A program made the translations under genes and the position numbers. A stretch of 64,000 nt of DNA from assembly GCA_030059665.1 (NCBI GenBank), contig JANVYR010000001.1, positions 416,001 to 480,000 of the forward strand, in the 5' to 3' direction. Source of the stretch: Candidatus Calditenuis fumarioli. GTDB lineage: Archaea; Thermoproteota; Nitrososphaeria_A; Caldarchaeales; Calditenuaceae. This document shows positions 7,905 to 33,796 of this stretch, piece by piece. Numbering within the stretch: position 1 is the stretch's first letter; each line of letters starts with the position of its first letter. The notes under the pieces were generated by a model that saw only the letters and a list, made by a program, of their open reading frames with translations, was not told the origin of the DNA and ran no database searches.

Positions 7905-8201
7905 TCATAGTAGGGCGTACTCCTCCCTCGTCCAGGGGTCGAGGATCCGGAGCCTGCCGTACTTGGGCCTCACCGCGAGCAGCACCTTGGCGCCGGAGAC
8001 GCGGGATACCTCGCTGAGCTTCTCGAGCTCCTCGTGCGAGGGCCTGTCGTTGTACTTGCACTCGACCAGAACAGCCTGACCGCCCTTGATGCAGACCAGG
8101 TCAACCGGCTTGCTCCCCGCGGCCCTCACCACCAGCCAACCCCTCGAGGCGAAGAGGTCCCTCACCTCGTACTCTAACCTCCTACCCCTTTTGTAGCTCA
8201 T
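7905..8201 (-). CDS. Hjc-like Holliday junction resolvase / PD-(D/E)xK nuclease, copy 1
   Basis: GRRLEYEV...VVRAAGSKPVDLV...LVECK. Confidence 0.8.
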   Translation of the reverse strand: MSYKRGRRLEYEVRDLFASRGWLVVRAAGSKPVDLVCIKGGQAVLVECKYNDRPSHEELEKLSEVSRVSGAKVLLAVRPKYGRLRILDPWTREEYALL

Positions 8202-8319
8202 CCGAGGACCGTTTTCGCCCGGCGGATATCACGTTTTCCCGAAAACCGTTACAGCTGGATCGGCAGGATGCGGTGATCGCGCGGAACGTAAATTGATCGG
8301 AGGCTCCGAACGCTCTGGG

Positions 8320-9894
8320 ATGCGGTTCGAGGACCTCGTCCTGAGGGCAATCGTCTTCATCGCTGGTGCGGTGGTCATGGTCGTGGAGCTGGCGGGTGGC
8401 AGGGCGATAACCGCGCTCTACGGGAGCTCCGCGGTCGTCTGGGGCGGGGTGATCGGCGTTGTTTTGACCGCGCTCTCCTCGGGCTACTGGATCGGCGGCC
8501 GCCTCTCGGACAGGTTCGACCCGAGGAAGGTGGTGATCGCGATGGCCCTGGTTGGTGGGATCTACGTGACGGCCCTCCCGACCGTGACCGCGCTCGCCTC
8601 ATCCGTATTCAGGTTCGAGCTGCTGGAGGAAAGGATCGGATCGGTCCTGAGCGCTTCGATCGTGACCGGAGTTCCGTCGCTGCTGTTGGGAGCTGTCGTC
8701 CCGGCGGCGGTCAAGCAGATCGGTCAGGGAAGGCAGGAGCTCGGAACGGTCTCTGGTAACGTCTACGCCCTCTCGACGCTCGGCAGCATCGCGGGCACCT
8801 TCGGGACCACATTCTTCCTGTTGCAGTACCTCGAGGTGAACTCGATCTTCCTGCTCTCGGGCCTGACCCTCTCCGCGATCGGTCTTGTGGGAGCCGTCCG
8901 CCACCCGGGGATGCTGAAGGCCGGGGCAATCGCGGTGGTTCTCTCGGTGCTGGTCACCTCCCCTTCCTTCCTGGTCTGCACCTCCGCGTACATCGGTGAC
9001 GTGAAGTACGTCGGCGACTCGGCCTACTCCAGGATCGTCGTGGTCGAGAGGGCTGGCACGAGGCTGCTCTACATCAACGGCCTCCTCCACAGCGGCATGG
9101 TCATCGGCGTCCCCGATTCGCTGCCCTTCGCGTACACCAGGTTGTTCGTTCTGGGTCCCCTCATCAACGGGAAGACCAGGAACGCCACGGCGCTCTTCAT
9201 CGGCGGCGGGGGCTTCTCGGGCCCCAAGTTCTTCGCGAGCCATTACCCAGGAATGAGGATAGTGGCGGTTGAGGTCGACGAGAAGGTGGTGGAGGTGGCC
9301 CGCAGGTTCTTCCACCTCGACGAGTTCAGCGACAGGATAGAGGTCGTCGTCATGGACGGGAGGAGGTATCTGATGGTGACCGATGCGGTTTTCGACGTGG
9401 TGGTGCTCGACGCCTACTCCAAGAACTACATACCGTTCCACCTCGCGACGTCCGAGTTCTTCGGCCTGCTCAGATCGCGGGTCAGGGAGGGTGGCGTGGT
9501 CGTCTCGAACGTAATCGCCTCGCTCGCAGGGCCCACATCGGCCATCCTCTGGGCCTACGTCAGGACCCTCACCCAGCACTTCCCCCACGTCCTGATCGTT
9601 CCCGTCTCGAGCGGTGACCCGTATGACGTTCAGAACGTGATCGTGGTCGCGAGCGATGCCCCACTTCCGGACACCAGGACCCTGCTCGACCGCGCATCGA
9701 CCGATCCCGTTGCGTCCCAGCTGGGGCTCGAGGGGCCCATCTCCAGGGCCTTCGTCCCCTCACACGACCTATCTCAGTTTCCGCTGCTCACCGACGGCTA
9801 CTCGCCCATCGAGAACCTGATGAACCCGGTGACGATGTCCCGCTTCGGGGAGCGTTACACGACCGGCCTCGGATCGCCCTCCCTCTGCGCCTGA
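8320..9894 (+). CDS. Fused membrane domain / spermidine synthase-like SAM-dependent transferase
   Basis: About 7 N-terminal TM segments (MVVELAGGR...YGSS...W), then IGGGG motif I, VEVD and DVVVLDAY. Confidence 0.85.
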   Translation: MRFEDLVLRAIVFIAGAVVMVVELAGGRAITALYGSSAVVWGGVIGVVLTALSSGYWIGGRLSDRFDPRKVVIAMALVGGIYVTALPTVTALASSVFRFELLEERIGSVLSASIVTGVPSLLLGAVVPAAVKQIGQGRQELGTVSGNVYALSTLGSIAGTFGTTFFLLQYLEVNSIFLLSGLTLSAIGLVGAVRHPGMLKAGAIAVVLSVLVTSPSFLVCTSAYIGDVKYVGDSAYSRIVVVERAGTRLLYINGLLHSGMVIGVPDSLPFAYTRLFVLGPLINGKTRNATALFIGGGGFSGPKFFASHYPGMRIVAVEVDEKVVEVARRFFHLDEFSDRIEVVVMDGRRYLMVTDAVFDVVVLDAYSKNYIPFHLATSEFFGLLRSRVREGGVVVSNVIASLAGPTSAILWAYVRTLTQHFPHVLIVPVSSGDPYDVQNVIVVASDAPLPDTRTLLDRASTDPVASQLGLEGPISRAFVPSHDLSQFPLLTDGYSPIENLMNPVTMSRFGERYTTGLGSPSLCA

Positions 9895-21531: not shown

Positions 21532-22911
21532 ATGAGCTCACCGGCGATCTACGAACATCTGCTCCTGCTGGCGGTGGCCGCTGTCGTCGTCTTCCCGAAC
21601 CAGCTTCCATATCCTCCACTGGATACGACGCCCTCCGCGGTCTCTTCACCGGCCGTCAACGTCCTCGTCATGGCGCTTCCGACGGAGCGGGCCGTTGTGG
21701 TCTACGAGATCGATTCAGGATCCCTCTGGAGAATAGGACTGGGCTTCGTTCCGGAGGGGGTCGTCTCGTCGGGCGACAGGGCGCTTGCCTACTCGAGGAT
21801 CCAGCAGAAGGCGGCGCTCCTCGACCTCCGGGCTAGGGCCGTCCTAAGGGAGATCGACGTCCGGGTGGAGGCTGCCTGGCCTGCAGCGAACGGCTTCCTC
21901 GTCCACGACGGCCTCAAGCTGATCGTCCTCAGCCCCGACGGAGAGATCGTCAGGGACTTCAAAACCGGTTATGCCGGATCGCCCTGGTCCGGTAGTGCTA
22001 AGGGGAACGCTTTCTGGTTCGTTGAGGAGGACCTCGTGACGCTGAACCTCCTCGACCTGAGTACTGGTCAGATCAGGCAGGTCTACAAACACAACGATAA
22101 GATAACAGCGGTTCTCGCGCTCACCGAAAACAGTGCAGCCATCTCCTCGAAGGGCTACATGGGTATCATTAGGTCCGACGGGACGCGGAGGGACCTCAAG
22201 ATCCCATATCAGGTCTCAGAGGCGACGTTTCTGTTCCCCGCGAAAGCAGGGAGGGTCGTCTTCGTCGACTTGATCCATCGCGTCGTGGGGATCATCGGTG
22301 AGGACCTCGCGGAACATAGGGTGGTCGAGAGGTTGACGTTCGCCCTCGCCTCACCTGCGCCGTCAAAGCTCTACGTCCTCGACCCATCGGCGAAGACGCT
22401 GGACCTATTCGACCTCACGTTCGAGCCCGAGATCAGGGAGGCGCGCTTCCTCGTCACCGGGAAGTCCACGGTCAGGGTCGAGGCCGTCGTGGTGGACCTG
22501 GACAAGGACGCGGAACCGGGGTTCCCGCAGGTAGTCGTCGAGGACAGTAAGGGCACGAGGACGATAGTTCCGATGAGGGCCCTCCCCGACAGCAGGTACT
22601 CGGCGGACGTGGACCTGAGCGACCTGCGGGGAACGGCGACCGTCAGGGTCGTCGTGAGGGACGAGGAGGGGCACGTCGCCCAGAGCAAAGAGTACAGGGT
22701 AGAGGTGGAGGCAGGCGAGATCAAGACGACGACTGGACTCACCGTCACAAACACAGTCACTAGCCCTGCCCAAACCGGTAGGGAGACCCAGCAGCTGCTG
22801 TTGTCCTCGGTCGAGCTGACCTTCTTCCTCGTCCTGGTGGGCGCCCTCGTCCTCGTGGCACTCAGGGCCCGCAGAACCGGAAGGTCACGCGCCAGGAAGA
22901 GAAAGGCTTAA
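21532..22911 (+). CDS. Membrane-anchored surface protein (beta-propeller-like plus Ig-like domain)
   Basis: N-terminal hydrophobic signal, repeated short beta strands, Thr-rich linker, C-terminal TM helix and basic tail. Confidence 0.6.
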   Translation: MSSPAIYEHLLLLAVAAVVVFPNQLPYPPLDTTPSAVSSPAVNVLVMALPTERAVVVYEIDSGSLWRIGLGFVPEGVVSSGDRALAYSRIQQKAALLDLRARAVLREIDVRVEAAWPAANGFLVHDGLKLIVLSPDGEIVRDFKTGYAGSPWSGSAKGNAFWFVEEDLVTLNLLDLSTGQIRQVYKHNDKITAVLALTENSAAISSKGYMGIIRSDGTRRDLKIPYQVSEATFLFPAKAGRVVFVDLIHRVVGIIGEDLAEHRVVERLTFALASPAPSKLYVLDPSAKTLDLFDLTFEPEIREARFLVTGKSTVRVEAVVVDLDKDAEPGFPQVVVEDSKGTRTIVPMRALPDSRYSADVDLSDLRGTATVRVVVRDEEGHVAQSKEYRVEVEAGEIKTTTGLTVTNTVTSPAQTGRETQQLLLSSVELTFFLVLVGALVLVALRARRTGRSRARKRKA

Positions 22912-22938: not shown

Positions 22939-24945
22939 ATGCCAGCTCACAGGCTGCTCTGGTCCCCCAGCGAGGATGACGTTGAGGACGCCAACATCAC
23001 CAAATTCATCGAGTTCGTGGTCAGGCGAAGGGGCATAGAGCTGGGAGGCTACTTCGACCTTTACGACTGGTCGGTCTCGGAGATACCAGAGTTCTGGAGG
23101 GAGGTCTGGGACTTCGTCGGCGTCATCTCCTCCGAGGGTTACACCGCGGTCGTCGACGACCTGAAGAAGTTCCCCGGTGCGAGGTGGTTCGTCGGAGCGA
23201 AGCTGAACTTCGCGGAGAACCTGATGAGGTACGGCGACGAGCGGACCGCGATCGTCTTCAGGGACGAGACCGGTGAGAGGAGGGAGTACACCTACCGGGA
23301 CGCCCACCTCGAGGTCGCCCGCTTCAGGGAGTACCTGAAGGAGATCGGCGTCGGACCAGGAGACAGGGTTGTGTCCTACATGCCGAACGTGCCCGAGACG
23401 GTCTTCGCCATGCTCGCAGCCACAAGCCTCGGGGCCGCTTGGTCCTCCACCGGAACCGAGCTCGGGCCCACAGCGGTGATCGACAGGCTGGGACAGCTGG
23501 AGCCGAAGGTCATGATCACCGTGGACCAGTCTGTTTACAAGGGCAGGATAACGGACGTCAGGCAGAACGCGGCGAAGATCGCCGGGTCCATCCCCTCGCT
23601 CGAGGCGGTCCTCGTCGTGGAGAGGTTCCGGGAGAGGGCCGACGTCTCATCGATTCCGAAGGCCGTCAGCGCCTCGGACGTCCTCTCCGGCAAGGGCGAG
23701 GCCGAGAGCGTCAGATTCGAGCAGGTGGAGGCCAACAGTCCGGTTTACGTCATGTTCTCCTCGGGGACCACCGGGAAGCCCAAGTGCATGGTCCAGAGCG
23801 TCGCCGGAGTCCTGGTGAACCACCTGAAGGAGCTCGTCCTGCACACGGATCTGAAAAGGGAGGACGCGCTGCTTTACATCACATCGCCGAGCTGGATGAT
23901 GTGGAACTGGATGACCAGCTCGCTGGCCGTGGGCTCCGAGCTCGTGCTCTTCGACGGCAACCCGCTGTACCCTGACTGGAAAACGATCTGGCGCATCGTG
24001 GAGGAGGAGGGAGTGACGGTGTTCGGTTGCAGCGCCAGCTACGTCTACGCCATCAAAGGCGCCAACGCGGAGCCCGGAAGGGAGTTCGACCTCTGGAGGT
24101 TGAGGGAAATCTCCCAGACCGGGTCGCCCCTCTCGGCGGACGGCTTCGCCTGGGTATACGAGCACGTCAAGTCCGACCTCTGGTTCAACTCGATCTCCGG
24201 CGGCACCGACATCAACGGCTGCTTCCTCGCGGGTAGCCCGACGCTTCCCGTCTACGCCGGGGAGCTCCAGGCCCCTGCTCTCGGGATGAAGGTGAAGGCT
24301 TACGACGAGATGGGGAACGAGGTCTACGACAGGGAGGGCGAGCTGGTCTGCGAGGCTCCTTCGCCCTCGATGCCGATCTACTTCTGGAACGACCCTGATT
24401 ACAGGAGGTACGTGGAGACCTACTTCGAGTTCTACCGCAGGGTGGGGAAGAACGTCTGGAGGCACGGCGACTGGATAACGATCTACTCGGACACGAGGAG
24501 CGCGGTCATCCACGGGAGGTCGGACGCCACCCTGAAGGTCTCGGGCGTCAGGATCGGTACCGCTGAGATCTACCGGGTGGTGGAGAGGTTCCCCGAGGTC
24601 GCTGACAGCCTGGTAGCATCGCTCGACCTGGAAGGCGAAACGGTCGTCGTACTCTTCGTCAAGATGCGGGAGGGTAAGGAGCTGACGGAGGACCTCGCGG
24701 ATCGGATCAGGAGGGCTCTGAGGGAGGAGGCTTCGCCGAGGCACGTGCCGCACTACGTCGTCGCAGCACCCGACATACCGTACACCTTCAACCTGAAGAA
24801 GGTCGAGATTGCGGTTACGAACCTCCTCAACGGCAGGCCCGTAACGAACAGGGAGGCTATCGTGAACGCGGAGGTCCTGGAGTTCTACGAGAGGTTCGCG
24901 CAGGATTTGAGGAGGAAGCTGACGGAGTCCGGGAAGAGAGGTTAG
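22939..24945 (+). CDS. Acetoacetate-CoA ligase
   Basis: LW.PS...NIT.F, WFVGAKLNFAENL, MFSSGTTGKPKC, SISGGTDI and GRSDATL motifs. Confidence 0.88.
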   Translation: MPAHRLLWSPSEDDVEDANITKFIEFVVRRRGIELGGYFDLYDWSVSEIPEFWREVWDFVGVISSEGYTAVVDDLKKFPGARWFVGAKLNFAENLMRYGDERTAIVFRDETGERREYTYRDAHLEVARFREYLKEIGVGPGDRVVSYMPNVPETVFAMLAATSLGAAWSSTGTELGPTAVIDRLGQLEPKVMITVDQSVYKGRITDVRQNAAKIAGSIPSLEAVLVVERFRERADVSSIPKAVSASDVLSGKGEAESVRFEQVEANSPVYVMFSSGTTGKPKCMVQSVAGVLVNHLKELVLHTDLKREDALLYITSPSWMMWNWMTSSLAVGSELVLFDGNPLYPDWKTIWRIVEEEGVTVFGCSASYVYAIKGANAEPGREFDLWRLREISQTGSPLSADGFAWVYEHVKSDLWFNSISGGTDINGCFLAGSPTLPVYAGELQAPALGMKVKAYDEMGNEVYDREGELVCEAPSPSMPIYFWNDPDYRRYVETYFEFYRRVGKNVWRHGDWITIYSDTRSAVIHGRSDATLKVSGVRIGTAEIYRVVERFPEVADSLVASLDLEGETVVVLFVKMREGKELTEDLADRIRRALREEASPRHVPHYVVAAPDIPYTFNLKKVEIAVTNLLNGRPVTNREAIVNAEVLEFYERFAQDLRRKLTESGKRG

Positions 24946-25343
24946 GGGGCCGGCTCGAAGCCCTCTATATCCAATATCGAACCGACCCTCTTCTGCCTGA
25001 ACCTCACCCTGACCCTCATACCTTCCCTCGGATCGCCCTCGCCGAGATACCGGTGCAGAAGGCCGCCGCCGAAACCGTCGAAGGACACGAAGGCCAGCAC
25101 CTCACCGCCTCCGTACCTGGTCCAGGTGACGACCCTGCCCTCATTGGTGACCTCGACGTGCTCGACCTTGCCGTCTATGCAGTGGGGACAGAACGCGAAG
25201 GGCGGGACGTACGACCTCGAGCAGGCCCTGCACCTCGACCCCCTCAGCACGCCGTTTCGGAGGCCCTCGAGGAAGACCGAGAGCGCGAAGCCCGCAGGGT
25301 ACTCGTAGGGGTTCTCTATCGAGTGCCTGAACTCCCCTGCCAT
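24942..25343 (-). CDS. DUF35 (Zn-ribbon/OB-fold acyl-CoA-binding) protein B
   Basis: GSRCRACSRSYVPP...CPHC plus OB fold. ATG at 25343 with a GGGG RBS-like run. Confidence 0.85.
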   Translation of the reverse strand: MAGEFRHSIENPYEYPAGFALSVFLEGLRNGVLRGSRCRACSRSYVPPFAFCPHCIDGKVEHVEVTNEGRVVTWTRYGGGEVLAFVSFDGFGGGLLHRYLGEGDPREGMRVRVRFRQKRVGSILDIEGFEPAP

Positions 25344-25348
25344 CCCCC

Positions 25349-26008
25349 TCACCCCCGCAAAGGTGCGAAGTAGAGCACGTCGGTGATGCTCCCCGTCCTC
25401 TCCTCCTTCGGTTTCCAGACCGGCCTCACCTTCATCCCGATCTCGATCTCGGAGGGTTCGACCTCGCCGAGCCTGTGGAGGATGCCTGCGGCGTGGGCCA
25501 CCGTTGAGCTGTTGGGCCTGATGACCTTCGTGCCCTCGAACCAGATCACCGCTATGGGCTCCGGTCTCGGCAGCCTCACCTTGGGGTTCGTGCCGATGTG
25601 GGCGATCGAGTAGGTGGCGACCTCGCCCTCGCCGCTGTGCTCGATCCACTCGTCGACCCTCCTGAAGCACCACTCGCAGAAGGTCCTGGGAGGTATCAGG
25701 ACCCTGCCGCAGCCGGTGCACCTCGTCCCCACGAACTTGCCCTCCCTCAGCCCCTGGAGGAACCTCGTCATGGCAATACCGGTGCTCCTCCTGTACCGGT
25801 AGTCGAGCAGGTATGGCGTGACCAGCAGCTCCGCAGGGAGCTCGAACTCGGTCCTGCCCCTCACCTCCTGCAACGCCTTCGTCCAGGCCCCCTCCCTGCC
25901 GTCGCCCACCTCGGCGACCGCTCTGGAGAGGAGCTCCGCGAGCGGCCCATCGAGCCCGGACAGGGTTTCCGGAGCGAACCTGACGAGCCTGGCCCTCATC
26001 TCCTGCAC
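25349..26008 (-). CDS. DUF35 (Zn-ribbon/OB-fold) protein A with N-terminal extension
   Basis: GTRCTGCGRVLIPPRTFCEWC plus OB fold. Confidence 0.85.
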   Translation of the reverse strand: MQEMRARLVRFAPETLSGLDGPLAELLSRAVAEVGDGREGAWTKALQEVRGRTEFELPAELLVTPYLLDYRYRRSTGIAMTRFLQGLREGKFVGTRCTGCGRVLIPPRTFCEWCFRRVDEWIEHSGEGEVATYSIAHIGTNPKVRLPRPEPIAVIWFEGTKVIRPNSSTVAHAAGILHRLGEVEPSEIEIGMKVRPVWKPKEERTGSITDVLYFAPLRG

Positions 26009-27150
26009 ACCACCACCGTGCCCACCTGCATCAGGTCACCCCACGCCTGAGCCACGCCCACATATGCGTTCGGGACCTGCCTCTTCCCCGCACGCCCGGA
26101 GAGCTGCCAGTAAAGCTCGGCGACCTTCATCAGCCCCGCTGCCGCGATGGGGTTGCCGACGCCGAGTAGGCCTCCGGAGGGCGATGCCGGATGGTCGCCG
26201 TCCCTGTGGAGCTGGCCCTCTTTCAGCAGCTTCGGTGCCAGCCCTGGCCTCCCGAGAAGCCCGTCCAGGTGATGGAGCTCCTTGTACGTGAACGGGTCGT
26301 AGGGCTCCCAGACGTCGACCTCCTTCAGCGGATTGACTATCCCCGCCATCCGGTAGGCCCTCTGCGCCGCGAGATAGACGTAGTACGGGAAGGCGAGGTC
26401 CCTGTTCGTCCAGTACTGGGAATCGAGGCACGTTGCCACACCGTCGATCCAGACCGGCGTGTCGGTGAGCTTCCTCGCCTCCTGCTCCGACGCGAGAAGG
26501 ATTGCGACCGCTCCGTCCGATGTGGGGCTGATGTCGAGCCTGTTCACAGGCCAGACCATCACCTCCGAGTTGAGCACGTCCTGGACGGTTATCCTCGCAC
26601 CGAGCTGGGCATGGGGGTGGTCGAGGGCGTTCGCCTTGTTCTTCACGGCCACCTCCGCGATGAGCTCCTTCGTCAGGTTGTGGGCCTCCATGTACCTCCT
26701 CATCTCGAGCGCGAAAATCCAGATCAGGTTCGGTCCGAGGGGTTGCTCGATCACCGGCTCGAAGATCGTCTGGAAGAGCTTCTGGGCGTGCGGGTACGGA
26801 GGGCTCATCTTCTCCCAAGCCACCACCAGGAGCGTGTCGAAGAGGCCTGAGGCGACGTGGTACCAGCCAGCGACCGCTGCGGCCACACCGCTCCCTCCTC
26901 CGACGAAGACGCGGGTGATGGGCTTGCCGATGGCCCCAGCCGCCTCGTTCGCGATCGAGACCTTGTCGTGGTAGCCGTCGAAGGCGTCGGGCGCCGAGGC
27001 GCACAGGACCCCGTCGACGTACCTGATCGAGAGGGATCCCACGTCGTCGAGGCACCTCTTCACGGCCTCCCTGATCATCTCCGGCGACGAGTGGGGGAGC
27101 ATCGACCTGAAGTCGGTCATCCCAGCACCGACTATCGCGACCCTCCTCAC
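25996..27150 (-). CDS. Thiolase-fold protein A (SCP2/Ltp2-like, no nucleophilic Cys)
   Basis: Thiolase fold: RVFVGGGSG where CASG is expected, ISPTSDGA, YDPF and GGLLGVGNP. Confidence 0.85.
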   Translation of the reverse strand: MRRVAIVGAGMTDFRSMLPHSSPEMIREAVKRCLDDVGSLSIRYVDGVLCASAPDAFDGYHDKVSIANEAAGAIGKPITRVFVGGGSGVAAAVAGWYHVASGLFDTLLVVAWEKMSPPYPHAQKLFQTIFEPVIEQPLGPNLIWIFALEMRRYMEAHNLTKELIAEVAVKNKANALDHPHAQLGARITVQDVLNSEVMVWPVNRLDISPTSDGAVAILLASEQEARKLTDTPVWIDGVATCLDSQYWTNRDLAFPYYVYLAAQRAYRMAGIVNPLKEVDVWEPYDPFTYKELHHLDGLLGRPGLAPKLLKEGQLHRDGDHPASPSGGLLGVGNPIAAAGLMKVAELYWQLSGRAGKRQVPNAYVGVAQAWGDLMQVGTVVVCRR

Positions 27151-28304
27151 GCCGCATCACCTGTCCTGAGGAAGGCGAGCGTCCCCGAATCGGATATCTC
27201 CGAGTGGAGGGACCCCACTATCGCGGCCCTCGCTCCCCTCACCTGGACCCTGCCGGCCTCGCCCCTGAGCTGCCTGACCGCGCCGACGAAGGCCCTCGCG
27301 CCGGAGGAGTTGAGGGAGTTCCCGTTCCCGATGCACCCACCCGAGGGATTGAGGGGGAGGGTCGATCCGGGATCGAGCTCGCCGGCCCTAAGCATCCTGA
27401 CGGCCTCTCCATCCGAGCCGAGCATGGCGGAGAGGAACTGGAGCTCCTGGTGCGCGGAGAACTCGGTGAACTCGATGAGGTCCACGGCCCTGATCGGGTT
27501 GGTGCCGATCGCGCTCCTCACCCGGTCCAGCGCAGCTCCGACCCACTCCATCTTGCCCCAGCTCCTCATCCACTGATGCGCCGCAGAGGTGGTTCCCGAG
27601 CTCCAGACCATGGCGAGCTCCACCGCCCGGTCAGAGCGTCTCCCCCACTTCTCGGTTCCGAGCACGACCACCGCGACGTAGTCCGAGAAACGGGCGACGT
27701 GCCTCCGCCTAAGCGGCTCGTAAAGGAACGGGTCCTCCTCCAGCTGCTCTGCGGTCACCTCCTCACCGTAGGGGCCTCCGGAGAGCGCCGCGTTCCTCGA
27801 GTTCTTCGCCGCGACGGAGGAGAGGTCGTGGGTTGTGCATCCGGAAGACCTAAGGAAGGCCCTCGCGTCAAGTCCCAACAGGACGTAGGGGTCGGCGAGG
27901 AGGGGCCTGAGGCAGTGCGGGTCGAGTGAAGACCTCAGCACGTCGTTGTAGTTCTCGATCTCTGATGGCCTGGCGTGGGACTCGACCACCGCGAGCTCCA
28001 TCATCCCCGACCTCAGGGCCATGTACGCGTGGAAGAGGGCCTCGAGGAAGTCGCCAGCCACGAGCATGTTGAACTTCAGCCTCGTCCCTACCTGATCGGG
28101 AGTGTATTCATCCGCAATCGATATCCCTTCGACGAAGTCCTGCTCGGCGGAGAAGAGGCCCTCGACCTCATCCGGCTCGACGCCCGCGTCAGCGTAGGCC
28201 CTGACCGCAGCCTCGAAGGTCGCCTCCCTGAAGTCGAGCTCCCTCATCGAAGTCGAGGGAGGAAGTCCCCCCACCCCGAGAACGTATACCTTGTTGAACC
28301 CCAT
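27147..28304 (-). CDS. Thiolase-fold protein B (degenerate)
   Basis: Thiolase fold without recognisable catalytic residues (LVAGDF, TEFS, NPSGGCIGNGN). Confidence 0.8.
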   Translation of the reverse strand: MGFNKVYVLGVGGLPPSTSMRELDFREATFEAAVRAYADAGVEPDEVEGLFSAEQDFVEGISIADEYTPDQVGTRLKFNMLVAGDFLEALFHAYMALRSGMMELAVVESHARPSEIENYNDVLRSSLDPHCLRPLLADPYVLLGLDARAFLRSSGCTTHDLSSVAAKNSRNAALSGGPYGEEVTAEQLEEDPFLYEPLRRRHVARFSDYVAVVVLGTEKWGRRSDRAVELAMVWSSGTTSAAHQWMRSWGKMEWVGAALDRVRSAIGTNPIRAVDLIEFTEFSAHQELQFLSAMLGSDGEAVRMLRAGELDPGSTLPLNPSGGCIGNGNSLNSSGARAFVGAVRQLRGEAGRVQVRGARAAIVGSLHSEISDSGTLAFLRTGDAA

Positions 28305-28482
28305 TGCAACTTCTCTTAGCGTCTATCGATTAAAAGTTTGTGCGGTGTCCGCGTGCTGTAACGCGTCTCATCTCACGGCGTTCCGCTCTCCTCCGAAACC
28401 CCATTCCAGTAGGTGAGGGTTGACGGCCCGATTTCCATCGGACGGTTTTCGAGGGACACAAGGTGATGCAAGGAATCGTCGC

Positions 28483-29652
28483 TCAGTAGGACTTCGGCAG
28501 ACCCAGGACGTGGGTCCCGATGTAGCCGAGGATGAGCTCGTTGGTGACCGGCGCGGTCTTGAAGAGGCGCAGGATCGGGTAGAGCGTGATCAGGTCGGTC
28601 CCGAGCTCGAAGGCGTAGCCCCCGAACGCCTGCATGGCGACGTCCAGAGCCTCAAGCCCTGCCTCCGACGCGAGCAGCTTGGCAGCGTTGGCCAGCTCCA
28701 GTCCCTTGCCTGACCGGTCGTGGAGCGCCGCGGCGGCGTAGACCATCGAACGGGCCGCCTCGAGGTGGGCGAAGGCCCTCGCCATCGGGAACTGCAGGCC
28801 CTGGTGCGAGCCGATCGGGACGTCGAAGACCCTCCTAGTCTTCGCGTACTCGACGGCCTTGCTCAGGGCGAAATCGCCCAGACCAACGGAGATCGCGGCG
28901 ATCATCAGCCTCTCGACGTTCAACCCCTCGAACAACGTCCTGTAACCCTCCCCCTCCCTCCCTATCAGCTGGTCGCTCGATGCCCTGACCGAGTCGAGGT
29001 AGACCGCGTACTGCCACTCGGGCCCTTTCATGTCTATGTCGAGGGGCTCCATCCTGATGCCGGGGTCCGAGGTCTCAAGGACGAAAAGGGAGATCCCGTA
29101 CCTCTTGTCGCCCACCTCGTCGTACCTCTTCGTCCTCGCCACGAGCAGCATGTAGTCCGACTCCCTCGCGCCGCTGATGAAGACCTTCTGGCCGGTGATG
29201 ACGTAGCCGTCGCCGTCCCTCCTCGCCAGCGTCGAGATCCGCCAGGTGTTCGAGCCGGCCTCAGGCTCTGTCAGGGCGAAGCTCATGCGCCTCCCCTCCG
29301 TGCACGTCGGCGTGACGAAACGCCTGATCTGCTCCTCCGTCCCAGCGGAGAGGACGATGTGCCTGCTGAAGTGGGTGACGAGGAACTGCAGCACCGGCAA
29401 ACCCTCCAGCGCCAGCGCCTCCTGCGTCAGCACCGCGCCCCTCAGCCCGAACCCCGATCCGCCGTACCTCTCCGGGACGCCAACCCCTGTCAGGCCCTGC
29501 CTCCTCATCTCCTCCCAGAGCTCATCCGGCGGCTCCCTCCTCCTCCACTTCTCGAGCCAGTAGGACCTCCCGAAAACCCTCGCGACCGACCTGGCGGTCT
29601 TCAGCAGAAGGCCCTCCTCATCGGTGAGCGTCTCGTGCAGCGGTATCCGCAA
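28483..29652 (-). CDS. Acyl-CoA dehydrogenase (IVD/LCAD-type catalytic Glu position)
   Basis: FALTEPEAGS, GQKVFIS, LNVERL, RRVFDVPIGSHQ and QAFGGY motifs. Confidence 0.92.
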   Translation of the reverse strand: MRIPLHETLTDEEGLLLKTARSVARVFGRSYWLEKWRRREPPDELWEEMRRQGLTGVGVPERYGGSGFGLRGAVLTQEALALEGLPVLQFLVTHFSRHIVLSAGTEEQIRRFVTPTCTEGRRMSFALTEPEAGSNTWRISTLARRDGDGYVITGQKVFISGARESDYMLLVARTKRYDEVGDKRYGISLFVLETSDPGIRMEPLDIDMKGPEWQYAVYLDSVRASSDQLIGREGEGYRTLFEGLNVERLMIAAISVGLGDFALSKAVEYAKTRRVFDVPIGSHQGLQFPMARAFAHLEAARSMVYAAAALHDRSGKGLELANAAKLLASEAGLEALDVAMQAFGGYAFELGTDLITLYPILRLFKTAPVTNELILGYIGTHVLGLPKSY

Positions 29653-29671
29653 ACTTCGACTCCCCCTTTGA

Positions 29672-30646
29672 TCAGTGGGCGGCCGACTTCCTTATCGCGT
29701 TTGCTATCCGGTCCTTGTTGGGGAGGTACAGGTGCTCGTGGACCAGAGGGTAGGGCGTGTCGTAACCGGTCACCCTCAGTATGGGCGCCTCGAGGCTGTA
29801 GATCTCCCGTTCCGCGATGGTGGCGGCGATCTCCGCGCCGAACCCTGACGTCTTCTGGGCCTCGTGGACGATCACCGGCCTCCCGGTCTTCCTGACCGAC
29901 CTCGAGATCGCCTCCCAGTCGTAGGGTATCAGGCTCCTCAGGTCTATCACCTCAACGGATATCCCCTCCTTCTCGACCTCCTCCGCGGCAGCGACCGCGT
30001 CGTAGACCGTGGCCCCGTAGGTGATCACCGTGACGTCACTGCCCTCCCTGACCAGCCTCGCCTTCCCTATCGGGACGGTGTATTCCCCATCCGGTACGTC
30101 CTCCTTCAGCGAGTGGTAGAGCCTCTTCGGCTCGAAGAAGATCACGGGGTCGTCGTCGCGTATCGCGGAGATCAGCAGCCCCTTTGCGTCGGAGGGGGTG
30201 GAGGGAACGACGACCTTCAGCCCTGCCGTGTTGGTGAAGTAGGACTCCGGGCTCTGGGAGTGGTACATCCCTCCCCTGACGCCTCCACCGACGGGAGCCC
30301 TGATCACGAGAGGTGCAGCGTAGTGGCCCGCGTTCCGGTACCTGAACTTGGCGACGTTCGAGACCAGCTGCTCGAAGCCCCCGAAGATGAAGTCGGAGAA
30401 CTGGATCTCGGCCACCGGCCTCATCCCGTTCGCAGCCAACCCGAGGGCGACGCCGATTATCGCGGACTCCGAGAGGGGAGTGTCCATGACGCGCTTGGGC
30501 CCGAACTCGACGAGGAGGCCCTCCGTGCAACGGAAGACGCCGCCGTTGACGCCCACGTCCTCGCCCAGCACAACGACCCTCTCGTCCCGCCTCATCTCGT
30601 ATCTGAGGGCCTCGTTTATCGCCTTCGCGAAGGTCAGGACCGTCAT
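29672..30646 (-). CDS. 2-oxoacid dehydrogenase E1 beta subunit
   Basis: LGEDVG..GGVFR, DTPLSE, EIQFSDF, HSQSPE and FFEPK motifs. Confidence 0.93.
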
Positions 30647-31737
30647 CCGCGCATCACCCTCTCCATCCTGAGCTGCTGCCGAAACTCCTCCATCTGCTCC
30701 CTCAGCTGCGGCGTCGGCTCCGCGTAGACGTCCTCGAAGATCACCATCGGGTCGAGTCCGGGCTTGGCGAGCGCCTTCTCTACCTCCGCGGAGACAAGCG
30801 CCTCCACCTCCGCCCAGAGCGCCTTGTCTTCCTCCTCCCCCATCACGTTCTTGGAGATCAGGTAGGACCTCATCCTCTCGATCGGATCCCTCTCCATCCA
30901 GTACCTGACCTCCTCCTCGGACCTGTACCTCTTCGGGTCGTCGCTGGTGGTGTGGGCACCGAGCCTGTACGTCACCGCCTCTATCAGCACCGGATCGCCG
31001 CCTTCCCTGACCTCCTCGAAGACGGACCTCGAGACGAGGTACATCGCGATCGCGTCGTTGCCGTCAACCCGGTATCCGCTGAGGCCGTAGGCTATCGCCT
31101 TCTGAGCTATGGTCGCTGCGCCCGTCTGCCTGCTGACGTGCGTCGAGATCGCGTACTGGTTGTTCAGGCAGATGAAGACGATGGGAGGCTTGTAGACGCT
31201 GGCGAAGTTGATCCCCTCGTGGAAGTCTCCCTTCGAGGTCGCACCGTCGCCGAAGTAGGTGACCGCGAGCCTCCGCTCTCCCCTGATCTTGAAGGCAAGC
31301 GCGTATCCCACCGCTACGGGTATCTGCGTAGCGACGGGCGTCGGAGCGGGGACGATGTTGAACCTGCTGTCGCCGAAGACGGCGAACTCGTGGCCCTTCA
31401 GCGGATCGTCGACCGTGTTCAGCTGCCTGTCCAGTATCTCCGAGATCGGTACTCCCCTGGTCAGGTAAACTCCCAGCTCCCTGTAGGACGGGAAGACCAC
31501 GTCCTCGGGCCGCAGCGCCAGAGCGGAACCGACCATCGCCGCCTCCTCGCCCAACGACTCGGCGTAGAGGGCAACCTTTCCCATCCTCTGTAATCGGAGG
31601 AGGTACCTGTCGAGGGCCCTCGTGAGCACGAGCAACCTGTACATCCTCATCAGGAGCTCCCTCTCGAGTCCGAGGTCCTCCGGGTCCGGGGGCCTTCTCT
31701 TACCCAGAATTGTAATGAATTCCCACCACCCCCTCAA
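30643..31737 (-). CDS. 2-oxoacid dehydrogenase E1 alpha subunit (branched-chain/pyruvate type)
   Basis: PSYRELG, TPP motif [22 protein letters not shown] and HTTSDDP. TTG at 31737 gives 364 aa. Confidence 0.92.
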
Positions 31738-31936
31738 TCCGTAAAATGCGAATTCCCAGAGATAACCCTTCTCCCGTGAACAGTTGTCGTGTAAGGAAAT
31801 GGTGGCTGGTACGATCGTACAAGCGTTTTCCTTCGGGCTGAAATCCGCGTAACGGGAATACGGGGATATTGCGCGAAGCTGGCCGGATCCGGTGCACCGG
31901 CAGACGCTAATAGCCGTCGGACGGGCCCGGGGTGCG

Positions 31937-32677
31937 ATGCTGCTCGACAGGCTGAGACCCGGGAGGGGGGACAGGAAGATAGCGTCGCTTGAGGTCAAGC
32001 TCAACCGCTCCCTCACCGCGGTCAGCGCCAGCATCACTCGGCTGAGCAAGAAGTACTCCGAGCTGGAGCTGAAGGGGAAGGAGCTGTTCGATCGGTGCGT
32101 CGAGGCCCTCTCGTCCGGTGACGAGGAGCACGCCAGGATCTACGCCGACGAGATCATCGCGTTGAGGAGGCTCGCGAAGATCATCATGAGCAAGCTGATA
32201 CTGCTGGAGCAGGTCAAGGTCCGGCTTGAGACCGTGATGGAGCTGACGGAGGTGCTGGGCCTCCTCTCGTCCCTGAGGGGGGTGGTTCAGGTCGTCGCGA
32301 GGGAGCTCAGCTCGGTTACCCCTGAGGTCTCGGTGGCTCTGAACCAGCTCTCCGAGGACCTCGAGTCGCTGGTCACCACTACGTCCGCCGCGGTCCCCTC
32401 GCCCGCGCCCCAGCAGATGACGCTCGACGGCGAGGCGGAGGAGGTGCTGGAGATGGCCAAAAAGCTCGCGGCGGAGAGGGTGAGGATGTCGTTCCCGGAG
32501 GTTCCGGTGATGTCCGACAGGGAGAGGGCCGTTTACGAGCTGGTGACCTCTGCAGGTGACTCCCAGGCGCTGGACATAGAGGAGCTCTCGAAGGTCCTCG
32601 GTCTCAGCGTTGAGGAGGTCGAGGAGGTCCTGGAATCTCTTGCGAACAAGGGGTTGATCGAGGTCTCCTATGCGTGA
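31937..32677 (+). CDS. cdvB: ESCRT-III-like cell division protein CdvB
   Basis: Snf7-like helical core (ARIYADEI..LRR), MIM2-like RMSFPEVP and C-terminal winged helix. Confidence 0.82.
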   Translation: MLLDRLRPGRGDRKIASLEVKLNRSLTAVSASITRLSKKYSELELKGKELFDRCVEALSSGDEEHARIYADEIIALRRLAKIIMSKLILLEQVKVRLETVMELTEVLGLLSSLRGVVQVVARELSSVTPEVSVALNQLSEDLESLVTTTSAAVPSPAPQQMTLDGEAEEVLEMAKKLAAERVRMSFPEVPVMSDRERAVYELVTSAGDSQALDIEELSKVLGLSVEEVEEVLESLANKGLIEVSYA

Positions 32678-32680
32678 ACG

Positions 32681-33796
32681 TCAGGGCGCGCCGAATCGGG
32701 CGTTCCACTCCTCGAACATCCTCACGCTCTCCCTGCTGATGGAGGGTCTCCTTCTACCCATTGCCCTCCTGATGTCGGCCATCGTTATCTCCGGCGGCTC
32801 CTCCAGCCCCTCCTCGAACATCTTCTTCACCGCCTCAAGTTGGGCGTCGAGGCAGACCGAGAAGATGTCGTGCGGCGAGTAGCCCTCCATCTCCTCCGCC
32901 AGACGATTGAGGTCCAGGTCCCTCGAGGTCCTCAGCTTCGAGAGGTAGTGCTCCAGGATCCTGCGCCGCTCCTCGAGGCCCGGCGGCGGTATGTAGATCC
33001 GCTTCTGGAACCTCCGTATGAAGGGCTCGTCCAGGAGCCACGGTTTGTTGGTCGCAGCCATCAGGAAGAGGAAGGACCTGTTGAACTTCGTGAGGATTCC
33101 GTCCATCTCCGAGAGGAGCTGGTTCCTCACCCTCGCCTCTCCCCCCACCTCGACCTGGCGGTGGACCGTCAGCCAATCGACCTCGTCGATGAAGACTATC
33201 ACCGGCTTCCCCGACACGGCCTCGCTCCTGGCGGTGCTGAAGACGCGCTGGAGGTTCTTCTCGCTCTCGCCGAGCCACTTGGACATGATCTTCGCAGCAT
33301 CGATCACGTGGAGCTTCGCGTCCGCCTCGTTGGCCGTCGCAGCCACCATCAGCGTCTTCCCGCAACCCGGAGGCCCGAACAGGAGTATCCCGGTCGGCCA
33401 TCCGAGGGGGTAGAGGTCCGGCCTTTTCGAGGGATAGATTATGCTCTGACGGAGGGATTCCTTGACCGACTCGAGCCCGACGACGTCGTCCCAGCGAACC
33501 GGTGGTCTCGAGTCGAGAAACGCCGGCAACGCGTTCGATTTCTCCTTGGCCTCTGGCTCTTCCTGCGTAGCTCGGGCCTCGCCGTCCTCCTGGAGCTCCT
33601 TCAGGCGTCTGGTGTAGGCCGCTATCCGCTCCCTGTAGACCTCCCGGTTGACGGGGCTGTCGCTCAGCTCCACCAGCTTGACCAGGAGACCGATCACCTC
33701 CCTGTACGCCTTTATGGCCTCGGCCTTGGACCCTGCCTTGTCCAGCATGATGGCCCTCCTGGCCTTGCTTGCTGCGAGCCGCTCGAGCTCGTTCAT
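32681..33796 (-). CDS. cdvC: Vps4-like AAA ATPase CdvC
   Basis: MIT domain, GPPGCGKT, IMSKWLGESEK, FIDEVD, AATNKPW and RRFQKRIY motifs. Confidence 0.9.
   Translation of the reverse strand: MNELERLAASKARRAIMLDKAGSKAEAIKAYREVIGLLVKLVELSDSPVNREVYRERIAAYTRRLKELQEDGEARATQEEPEAKEKSNALPAFLDSRPPVRWDDVVGLESVKESLRQSIIYPSKRPDLYPLGWPTGILLFGPPGCGKTLMVAATANEADAKLHVIDAAKIMSKWLGESEKNLQRVFSTARSEAVSGKPVIVFIDEVDWLTVHRQVEVGGEARVRNQLLSEMDGILTKFNRSFLFLMAATNKPWLLDEPFIRRFQKRIYIPPPGLEERRRILEHYLSKLRTSRDLDLNRLAEEMEGYSPHDIFSVCLDAQLEAVKKMFEEGLEEPPEITMADIRRAMGRRRPSISRESVRMFEEWNARFGAP

Follow-up and report, generated by a model that had tools for sequence, protein, structure and literature searches.

Carbon-carbon cleavage by a thiolase fold without a nucleophilic cysteine is represented by two systems of known structure, each with a DUF35 partner: the steroid C3 side-chain retro-aldolase TcLtp2-ChsH2(DUF35) of Thermomonospora curvata (PDB 6ok1) and the bile-acid C5 side-chain aldolase CtSal-CtShy(DUF35) of Comamonas testosteroni (PDB 9myr), with which we group the trypanosomal SLP (YDCF) for comparison. 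Ltp2 and Sal carry a glycine at the nucleophile position, and the tyrosine that opens the xDxF motif serves as their essential catalytic base (PMC12329534). For the actinobacterial Ltp3/Ltp4, an aldol-lyase function on C24-branched sterol side chains has been proposed (Wilbrink et al. 2012, as cited in PMC10832528). DUF35 proteins also accompany archaeal acetoacetyl-CoA thiolases, as in the thiolase/HMG-CoA synthase/DUF35 complex (PDB 6esq) and the KT/DUF35 pair of S. acidocaldarius (Saci_1121/1120).

A four-gene cassette and its flanks

A 64,000-nt stretch of the genome of the hot-spring archaeon Candidatus Calditenuis fumarioli (hereafter the window) carries on its minus strand the genes E1alpha-E1beta-ACAD and, after a gap of 178 nt, a cassette of four genes, thlB-thlA-DUF35-DUF35. 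The thiolase-fold genes thlB (27147..28304, 385 aa; PF22691, 3.8e-18) and thlA (25996..27150, 384 aa), the latter encoding the probable catalytic subunit, overlap by 4 nt (GTGA). The junction between thlA and DUF35-A (25349..26008, 219 aa; PF12172 and PF01796) is an ATGA overlap, or one of 13 nt with a GTG start, and a 5-nt spacer, with a Shine-Dalgarno-like run (GGTGAGG), separates DUF35-A from its short zinc-ribbon/OB paralogue DUF35-B (24942..25343, 133 aa; PF12172, 2e-10). The tight packing of the four genes, described in the initial annotation, is thus seen in the DNA itself. Based on the 178-nt gap and a TATA-like box in it (TTTTAA, 28330..28335, minus strand, 26-31 nt 5' of the thlB ATG), the cassette probably has a promoter of its own.

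The flanking genes encode the enzymes initially named, as domain and profile matches agree. E1alpha, a 2-oxoacid dehydrogenase subunit of the branched-chain type (30643..~31737, start codon uncertain; PF00676, 2.4e-84; TIGR03181, 405 bits), overlaps E1beta (29672..30646; PF02779 and PF02780; NF006667, 318 bits) by 4 nt, and is covered by two RNA-library contigs (699 and 729 nt, at least 99% identity; weak evidence). The only E2 of the genome lies elsewhere, adjoined by a second E1beta copy. The acyl-CoA dehydrogenase (ACAD, 28483..29652) has three ACAD Pfam domains. On the plus strand, a bona fide-looking acetoacetate-CoA ligase (22939..24945) converges on the cassette, its 3' end sharing 4 nt with that of DUF35-B; it scores above the cut-offs of both NF002937 (837 bits, cut-off 639) and TIGR01217 (778 bits, cut-off 521). 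A gene for an HBD/ECH fusion lies ~2 kb upstream of the window.

Active-site residues and subunit composition

HMMER alignment to solved thiolases (7yvy, 4yzo, 6esq) places Gly85 of thlA at the nucleophilic cysteine, Tyr284 (YDPF) at the histidine of HDxF and Asn333 (GNP) at the histidine of GHP, and a WGD loop is found at 370-372. In thlB the corresponding positions hold Ala83 (VAGDF), TEFS and GNGN. The loss of the cysteine from both proteins and the substitutions of the other motifs, noted at first reading, are therefore all upheld. Among 47 orthologous pairs from many phyla, no conserved cysteine was found in either protein, and the thlA motifs GGG(T/S)G, EPYDPFxYKEL and GVGNPIAAAG show little or no variation; these replacements are thus family traits and not chance. 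About 40% of thlA positions are at least 90% conserved across phyla, and the four active-site loops are precisely where conservation is extreme, in archaea and bacteria alike. In thlB, Asp85 and an acidic loop (EDFxEGxSIxDEYTPDQ) are invariant, while its own active-site positions differ among orthologues, so that the proposed division into a catalytic A and a structural B subunit seems reasonable. The thlA-thlB pair is predicted to be incapable of ordinary thiolase chemistry. In profile space, thlA belongs with NF004721 (PRK06065; 567 bits, cut-off 455) and thlB matches NF004722 (PRK06066) at 258 bits, below its cut-off of 516; among the next-best matches, thlA to PRK08313 (237 bits) and thlB to PRK07937 (75 bits) are far under their cut-offs (514 and 419).

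DUF35-A consists of an N-terminal extension of ~70 aa, a Cys4 zinc ribbon and an OB fold, its nearest solved chain being SSO2064 (3irb, 5.5e-14). Its four cysteines are kept in 32-36 of 36 orthologues, and those of DUF35-B, which is 35% identical to it, in 25-28 of 28. Solved thiolase-fold/DUF35 complexes offer a precedent for a physical association, and one actinobacterial contig carries a natural thlA-DUF35-A fusion. The four genes would accordingly encode a single enzyme complex, and the four subunits initially proposed fit the two DUF35 partners, the kept gene order and this fusion.

Distribution and the likely reaction

At least 588 species genomes, archaeal and bacterial, keep the cassette in the same gene order, and thlA is 62-65% identical between the two domains; this speaks for an active site that works and is under constraint. 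Yet public annotation of thlA goes no further than "thiolase domain-containing protein", and we found no paper in the literature characterising the family. Across 80 related loci, the commonest neighbour is an ACAD (23 loci, counted within 10 kb), which directly adjoins the cassette in Caldarchaeales, Sulfolobales and Archaeoglobi. An acyl-CoA mutase is found near 16 of the 80, with 13 of 17 mutase genes of the B12-dependent isobutyryl-CoA type (Phe/Gln). An AMP-forming acyl-CoA ligase also recurs; ligases are present at 10-14 loci, ECH at 7, HBD and ETF at 5 each, and a CoA-transferase at 4. No MaoC domain was found near the cassette and no hydratase is among its regular neighbours; aldehyde-handling genes are rare, the one case being an aldehyde:ferredoxin oxidoreductase gene directly 5' of the cassette on a Freyarchaeota contig. 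Orthologues of the acetoacetate-CoA ligase (55-75% identity) adjoin ACAD and cassette at eight loci of Caldarchaeales, Nitrososphaerota and Geothermarchaeales. Sulfolobales share the layout ligase / ACAD-thlB-thlA-DUF35-DUF35, but the ligase there, at 26-30% identity, is no orthologue of acetoacetate-CoA ligase. This suggests that the ligase acts at the entry to the pathway, supplying the ACAD, and does not take up the lyase product, contrary to the initial suggestion that the complex feeds the ligase. The S. acidocaldarius locus appears to be saci_2230-2235, reported as a co-regulated set with lower levels on xylose than on NZ-amine (peptides) and higher levels under nutrient excess (PMC11486757; 10.1101/2021.07.28.454237).

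We favour, with middling confidence, a tyrosine-dependent, cysteine-free C-C lyase acting on a short, probably branched, acyl-CoA; chemistry and substrate class are what we infer from sequence, an aldolase-like route being the most likely. The acyl-CoA would be made by an acyl-CoA ligase or, at the Calditenuis locus, by the branched-chain 2-oxoacid E1, and oxidised to the enoyl-CoA by the adjacent ACAD; a hydratase encoded elsewhere (such as the HBD/ECH fusion) would then add water. In a thlA-thlB heterodimer with one DUF35 zinc-ribbon/OB protein per subunit, thlA would be the catalytic subunit, having no cysteine for acyl-enzyme formation, while thlB, whose own pocket is not conserved, would contribute the invariant acidic loop and Asp85. 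The 3-hydroxyl of a C4-C5, probably branched, 3-hydroxyacyl-CoA would lose its proton to Tyr284, and the thioester enolate would be stabilised by Asn333 and by backbone amides, with release of acetyl- or propionyl-CoA and a small aldehyde or ketone. Such a lyase is supported by the presence in thlA of both hallmarks of Ltp2 and Sal, Gly85 and Tyr284, and by the lineage being a shown specialist in branched-chain amino acids (PMC12979851). It is weakened by the absence from thlA of the residues that serve the known aldolases as acid, and by the scarcity of hydratase, MaoC and aldehyde genes around the cassette. By profile, the true archaeal thiolase 7yvy (6.7e-63) is a closer match to thlA than Sal (3.6e-32) or Ltp2 (1.5e-28) is, and the Tyr/Gly likeness may thus be convergent.

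The same proximity would suit a cysteine-independent "thiolase" that cleaves or condenses a 3-oxoacyl-CoA (acetoacetyl- or 2-methylacetoacetyl-CoA) without an acyl-enzyme, perhaps through CoA or water attacking the 3-oxo group directly. In several bacterial phyla, the cassette fills the expected thiolase slot beside isobutyryl-CoA mutase, ACAD, ETF and HBD, and an acetoacetate-CoA ligase or CoA-transferase adjoins it at other loci; of these neighbours, HBD, the acetoacetate-CoA ligase and the CoA-transferases would fit a 3-oxoacyl-CoA better than a 3-hydroxyacyl-CoA substrate. We nevertheless regard this as unlikely: none of the four catalytic residues of a thiolase is retained, thiolysis without the nucleophilic cysteine has no known precedent, and nothing forces it, with classical cysteine thiolases elsewhere in all five bacterial genomes checked and in that of Calditenuis.

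Other acyl-CoA chemistry on the same fold (decarboxylation of a malonyl-type CoA ester, enoyl-CoA hydration with cleavage, or isomerisation) seems quite unlikely. The Cys-less relative TbSLP has weak malonyl-CoA decarboxylase activity, and an asparagine in place of the GHP histidine is reminiscent of the His/Asn pair with which decarboxylating condensing enzymes stabilise the enolate; the many invariant Asp/Glu of thlB could activate water, and a separate hydratase is not a regular neighbour. However, neither are carboxylases, and the mutases beside the cassette belong to the non-carboxylated (Phe/Gln) type and not to the methylmalonyl-CoA mutases.

The initial annotation took the complex for a non-orthologous HMG-CoA lyase closing leucine catabolism, HMG-CoA giving acetoacetate and acetyl-CoA and the adjacent ligase re-activating acetoacetate. 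HMG-CoA is, like the Ltp2 substrate, a tertiary 3-hydroxyacyl-CoA; the set of E1alpha/beta, ACAD and high-scoring acetoacetate-CoA ligase is kept around the cassette across Caldarchaeales-like genomes, and CoA-transferases, potential acetoacetate activators, flank it at four other loci. In the published Calditenuis pathway, BLASTp was needed to name an HMGCL and an MCCC (PMC12979851). Classical HMG-CoA lyase was indeed not found in the genome, as had been anticipated, but its absence is uninformative, since it is missing from every one of the 121 genomes sampled in the phylum, 95 of which lack the cassette. In one bacterium, a true HMG-CoA lyase and the cassette occur together. The expected methylcrotonyl-CoA carboxylase is also missing, because no biotin carboxylase was found in the genome (91% complete), which holds only an orphan carboxyltransferase; there is then no known step from 3-methylcrotonyl-CoA to HMG-CoA. 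In hundreds of species with non-leucine flanks the cassette is nearly unchanged, leucine context being missing at most loci and isobutyryl-CoA-type mutases forming the strongest specific link, and the Sulfolobales ligase again speaks against the proposal. The alternative substrate initially suggested, 3-hydroxyisovaleryl-CoA, is a viable candidate; its cleavage would give acetone, a product of no use to the ligase. The cassette is thus not the exit step of the canonical leucine pathway in this genome, and an HMG-CoA lyase function is rather improbable. A pair without any catalysis of its own, serving the neighbouring acyl-CoA enzymes as scaffold or regulator, would agree with the loss of every thiolase catalytic residue and with DUF35 proteins being known scaffolds, but is very improbable given the extreme conservation of the thlA active-site loops and a cassette that stays constant while its partner enzymes change from genome to genome.

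Comparison with known systems

HMG-CoA lyase itself, a metal-dependent HMGL-like TIM-barrel (PF00682 / NF004283) of unrelated fold, shares with the cassette only the proposed reaction type, from a tertiary 3-hydroxyacyl-CoA to a ketone and acetyl-CoA, and HMG-CoA as substrate is without support here. The archaeal thiolases (7yvy, 6esq, 4yzo) are the nearest solved sequences and have the fold, the DUF35 partnership and the public annotation "acetyl-CoA acetyltransferase" in common with the cassette; yet they are shown thiolases that keep Cys, HDCF/HDAF and GHP, all replaced in thlA and thlB. Ltp3/Ltp4, as far as the cited account goes, resemble thlA/thlB in being neighbouring but distinct thiolase-fold "lipid-transfer" genes proposed to work jointly, in a retro-aldol release of propionyl-CoA that is chemistry of the HMG-CoA-lyase kind, but they belong to sterol degradation and their support is genetic only.

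Sal and SLP share with thlA the glycine at the nucleophile position and the tyrosine base of a YDxx motif, and with the cassette a DUF35 partner, which in the known system shapes the cleft. In Sal, however, the required acid is Cys304 of YDCY, where thlA has Pro286, the GHP position holds Gln instead of Asn, and the enzyme is a homodimer of a separate clade. Ltp2 likewise has the thiolase fold, the Gly for Cys replacement and an obligatory DUF35 partner; its YDHF and the YDPF of thlA both begin with tyrosine, and acyl-CoA ligase and ACAD come before it in its pathway, as in the cassette context. Its acid Tyr344 aligns at the GHP histidine, that is with Asn333 in thlA and Asn329 in thlB, and its His296 with a proline of thlA. 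The cassette has neither the steroid context nor the MaoC hydratase fusion of Ltp2, and its profile match to it is weak (1.5e-28). It is outside both the Ltp2 and the Sal clades, and where Ltp2 is a homodimer it combines two different thiolase-fold subunits with two different DUF35 proteins.

Organization, active sites and conservation of the cassette

The cassette consists of four minus-strand genes, encoding two thiolase-fold proteins, thlB (27147-28304) and thlA (25996-27150), and two DUF35 proteins, DUF35-A (25349-26008) and DUF35-B (24942-25343). As read from the DNA, thlB and thlA overlap by GTGA, thlA and DUF35-A by ATGA (or by 13 nt with a GTG start), and a 5-nt purine-rich spacer precedes DUF35-B. 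On the same strand lie E1alpha (30643 to approximately 31737), E1beta (29672-30646) and an acyl-CoA dehydrogenase (ACAD, 28483-29652), and an acetoacetate-CoA ligase gene on the plus strand (22939-24945; 837 bits for a cut-off of 639, and 778 for a cut-off of 521) is convergent with the cassette. Since a gap of 178 nt separates ACAD from thlB, and a TTTTAA box is found 26-31 nt upstream of the thlB ATG, the four genes are probably transcribed as a unit separate from the adjoining E1alpha-E1beta-ACAD unit. In one metatranscriptome, long contigs cover E1alpha/beta and a single 165-nt contig of depth 2 falls inside thlA, but such contigs cannot rank genes and the RNA library may contain DNA. The two DUF35 genes are translationally coupled in the cassette, and a thlA-DUF35 fusion is known elsewhere. 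A complex prediction for thlA, thlB and DUF35-B (partner thlB) scored 0.95, against 0.77 for a control in which thlA was replaced, so that the score is non-specific.

Two further features of the surroundings are kept in a related Caldarchaeales contig (L012). A 459-aa ORF (21532-22911, plus strand) with an N-terminal hydrophobic segment, a C-terminal membrane anchor, a basic tail and no Pfam match has a 457-aa counterpart there in the same place, adjoining the ligase gene. Directly upstream of E1alpha (31892-33796), a CdvB-like ESCRT-III gene (plus strand) and a Vps4/CdvC gene (MIT and AAA domains, minus strand) stand tail to tail, a neighbourhood also found in L012.

The initial annotation had described both thiolases as lacking the nucleophilic cysteine, and HMMER alignments to the solved archaeal thiolases 7yvy, 4yzo and 6esq and to a canonical paralogue bear this out: Gly85 of thlA and Ala83 of thlB occupy its place at the end of N-beta3. 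Its reading of the remaining motifs was equally accurate, as in thlA Tyr284 (YDPF) replaces the His of HDxF and Asn333 (GNP) that of GHP, and thlB carries TEF-S and GNGN at the HDCF/HDAF and GHP positions, respectively. Both proteins thus differ from SCP2/archaeal-type thiolases (EC 2.3.1.9/2.3.1.16), with the Cys, HDCF/HDAF and GHP His all replaced. The canonical paralogue from the same genome (contig C1, 689899-691074) retains Cys, HDCF and GHP, and the alignment can therefore detect these residues where they are present.

A pattern scan recovered a thlB relative in at least 588 species-representative genomes, and the order thlB-thlA-DUF35-DUF35 recurs among the 80 loci that we examined, being found in Caldarchaeales, Bathyarchaeia, Archaeoglobi, Asgard archaea, Methanomassiliicoccales, Chloroflexota, Planctomycetota, Actinomycetota, Armatimonadota, Thermodesulfobacteriota and further groups. 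Sulfolobales also carry the cassette. thlA of this archaeon is 62-65% identical to bacterial or Asgard members, and across 47 orthologues there is little or no variation in the motifs GGG(T/S)G, EPYDPFxYKEL, PSGGLLGVGNPIAAAG and QAWGDLMQ, no Cys is conserved, and the nucleophile position is Gly in every sequence. In thlB this position is variable (S/T/A/C/G), the Tyr/His position varies between D, S and T, and the GHP position holds N 20 times, Y 15 times and H 7 times among the 47 orthologues; Asp85 and the EDFxEGxSIxDEYTPDQ loop, however, do not vary. The Cys4 zinc ribbon is retained in both DUF35 families, and thlA is fused to the first DUF35 in one actinobacterial contig. By this distribution and conservation, the two thiolase-fold genes belong to a family and are not a decayed pair. 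Insertions between the two thiolase genes were observed twice, a small glyoxalase/VOC-family gene between thlB and the thlA-DUF35 fusion of the actinobacterial contig (L014, 2988-3362), and a PIN-domain toxin-antitoxin pair in Thermoflexus (L007).

With 567.5 bits for a cut-off of 455, thlA is a member of NCBIfam NF004721 (PRK06065), and thlB, whose best model NF004722 (PRK06066) gives 258 bits, below the cut-off of 516, appears on this sub-threshold match to be a divergent orthologue of the PRK06066 family. Sulfolobus acidocaldarius is the one control genome above the PRK06065/PRK06066 cut-offs. Both families are named solely "thiolase domain-containing protein", with no function attached, and no characterisation of a two-thiolase/two-DUF35 cassette was found in the literature on DUF35, thiolase-fold aldolases and isobutyryl-CoA mutase.

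Genomic neighbourhood across lineages

Genes surrounding the 80 loci were grouped by clustering, and the clusters that recurred were annotated. ACAD was the most frequent (23 loci), followed by the acyl-CoA mutase large subunit (16), AMP-forming ligases (10-14), MeaB (8), the B12-binding subunit (7), ECH (7), HBD (5), ETF alpha and ETF beta (5 each) and a CoA-transferase (4). Between ligase and ACAD, a place considered for a MaoC hydratase, the 184-aa gene proved to encode a methyltransferase. When aligned to the methylmalonyl-CoA mutase of P. shermanii and to 2-hydroxyisobutyryl-CoA mutase, 13 of 17 neighbouring mutase genes have Phe for Tyr89 and Gln for Arg207, the signature of isobutyryl-CoA mutase, and the methylmalonyl-type genes lie more distant from the cassette than those of the Phe/Gln type. 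Tight operons of the form MeaB-mutase-B12-thlB-thlA-DUF35-DUF35 and ETF-ACAD-(FeS proteins)-mutase-B12-cassette are found in Planctomycetota and Thermodesulfobacteriota. The only B12 acyl-CoA mutase of the genome studied here (contig C3, 95438-97219) is of the Phe/Gln isobutyryl-CoA type and not a methylmalonyl-CoA mutase, and a small B12-binding subunit is divergently adjacent to it (both in L125, 8988-11219).

The layout in Sulfolobales is a ligase next to ACAD-thlB-thlA-DUF35-DUF35. The control search named S. acidocaldarius as a cassette holder, and its set apparently corresponds to saci_2230-2235, locus tags that we infer from gene order. These genes are reported to fall together on xylose relative to NZ-amine, and to rise when nutrients are in excess (PMC11486757; 10.1101/2021.07.28.454237). 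Together with the neighbour counts and the Sulfolobales layout, this regulation indicates that the unit conserved across lineages is ligase, ACAD and cassette, serving short-/branched-chain acyl-CoA catabolism fed by amino acids. Being present, co-regulated and peptide-responsive in this genetically tractable organism, the cassette is directly accessible to functional tests.

In a Freyarchaeota contig (L010), an aldehyde:ferredoxin oxidoreductase gene (7938-9779) immediately precedes the cassette in the same orientation, with three AMP-forming ligase genes further upstream. This was the only case of an adjacent aldehyde-handling enzyme among the loci examined.

Candidate reactions

We regard a cysteine-free, Tyr-based C-C lyase complex as the best reading of the cassette, with confidence evenly balanced. 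To this extent the initial interpretation is supported; its assignment to HMG-CoA is not, as detailed below.

A rather unlikely alternative is that the cassette universally replaces thiolase as a cysteine-independent enzyme cleaving 3-oxoacyl-CoA. Acetoacetyl-CoA or 2-methylacetoacetyl-CoA would then be cleaved or formed without an acyl-enzyme intermediate, the Tyr/Asn/Asp site of thlA acting together with the acidic loop of thlB. This would account for a cassette that, in archaea and bacteria alike, stands where a thiolase would be expected, next to isobutyryl-CoA mutase, ACAD, ETF, HBD, acetoacetate-CoA ligase and CoA-transferases, and the genomic context favours this reading, since HBD, the ligase and the CoA-transferases all point to acetoacetyl-CoA. 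A role forced by the loss of classical thiolases was rejected, as all five bacterial holders that we checked have two or three each, and the genome studied here likewise keeps such enzymes. Gene content does not compel a thiolase role for the cassette, nor that of a lyase. Some other acyl-CoA chemistry on the thiolase fold is unlikely.

Cleavage of HMG-CoA, proposed initially as a non-orthologous replacement in leucine catabolism, seems quite unlikely. With two copies each of E1alpha and E1beta and a single E2, the genome (1.57 Mb, 91% complete) matches the description of Calditenuis, which has been shown to specialise in branched-chain amino acids (PMC12979851). A classical HMG-CoA lyase (NF004283) was, as expected under this proposal, not found in it (best 90 bits for a cut-off of 246), and its HMGL-like hits are isopropylmalate/homocitrate synthase-like. 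Yet this absence carries no weight, because no such lyase turned up in any of the 121 genomes sampled from the phylum, only 26 of which have the cassette; it was accordingly rejected as a marker of cassette holders. In bacteria, one of five holders combines a true HMG-CoA lyase with the cassette. The HMGL-like TIM-barrel domain (PF00682) is absent from both thlA and thlB. The methylcrotonyl-CoA carboxylase expected by the same proposal is not supported, as no biotin carboxylase was found in the genome (PF02786 matches carbamoyl-phosphate synthase only and PF02785 nothing), which has one orphan carboxyltransferase; the genome therefore lacks the standard conversion of 3-methylcrotonyl-CoA to HMG-CoA. 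Nor does the ligase seem to be fed by acetoacetate from the cassette: orthologues of acetoacetate-CoA ligase fill this place in Caldarchaeales-like lineages only, and a different acyl-CoA synthetase does so elsewhere, so that an entry enzyme fits better than an acetoacetate consumer. The cassette may belong to a carboxylase-free leucine route, in which 3-hydroxyisovaleryl-CoA would be cleaved to acetone and acetyl-CoA. As regards a possible acetone carboxylase, three TGA and one TAA interrupt a Hydantoinase_B-family match of 504 bits elsewhere in this genome (contig C1, 195564-197099), so that the gene is broken or the frame is at fault.

A dead scaffold, finally, is very improbable. The cassette is ancient, strongly conserved and widespread. 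Thousands of database entries label its thiolase genes "acetyl-CoA acetyltransferase", which neither protein can be. As a result, a thiolase that does not exist is counted, and the real reaction missed, when the metabolism of uncultured thermophiles and anaerobes is reconstructed; the branched-chain amino-acid model published for the lineage of this archaeon is an example. Finding the reaction could also fill gaps in the breakdown of leucine or valine by archaea.

Comparison with known thiolase-fold aldolases

Two other thiolase-fold genes of the genome deviate from the canonical pattern. A third Cys-less paralogue (contig C1, 36139-37329; L105, 8140-9330) has QGG at the nucleophile position, YDDF and GQA, and is flanked on one side by an E1beta/E2 pair and on the other by a molybdenum hydroxylase resembling the alpha subunit of glyceraldehyde/aldehyde dehydrogenase, with no adjoining DUF35 gene; it looks like a candidate Sal-like single-subunit aldolase beside an aldehyde oxidoreductase. 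Outside the window, the thiolase gene of the HMG-CoA synthase-thiolase-DUF35 (mevalonate) operon (contig C1, 820413-821579; L107, 6414-7580) reads VECGEASG, with Glu at the nucleophilic Cys position and a Cys two residues upstream, and has HDSF for HDCF with GHP retained. The mevalonate-pathway "thiolase" of this lineage may thus be non-canonical too, and the question is then which enzyme provides acetoacetyl-CoA.

In the characterised aldolases Ltp2 and Sal, the lost nucleophile is Gly and HDCF corresponds to YDHF and YDCY, respectively; the base of Ltp2 is Tyr294 and its acid Tyr344, and the catalytic residues of Sal are Tyr302 and Cys304 (PMC12329534). thlA resembles both in having Gly at the nucleophile position and a base Tyr, Gly85 and Tyr284 matching the Gly and Tyr294 of Ltp2 and being invariant in the thlA family, with YDPF aligned to HDAF of 7yvy, whereas thlB is without this combination. 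The acids are not shared. Tyr344 of Ltp2 (GEAYI) aligns to Asn329 of thlB, the GHP-His position and equivalent of thlA Asn333, so that both subunits have Asn, and the YDC(Y/F) of Sal and SLP with its essential acid Cys304 is absent, thlA having Pro286, kept in 46 of 47 orthologues. The thlA-family profile matches the true archaeal thiolase 7yvy best (6.7e-63), ahead of Sal (3.6e-32) and Ltp2 (1.5e-28). Both proteins miss the PRK08313 cut-off of 514 (thlA 237.5 bits, thlB 101), and thlB reaches 75 bits with PRK07937, below its cut-off of 419. The cassette thus plausibly works like the Ltp2/Sal aldolases, sharing their Gly and base Tyr, yet on residues and profiles it belongs to neither clade, since its acids differ and it is nearest to true thiolases; the Tyr/Gly likeness of thlA may be convergent. 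Identifying its reaction would add a third active-site type to those of the thiolase-fold lyases.
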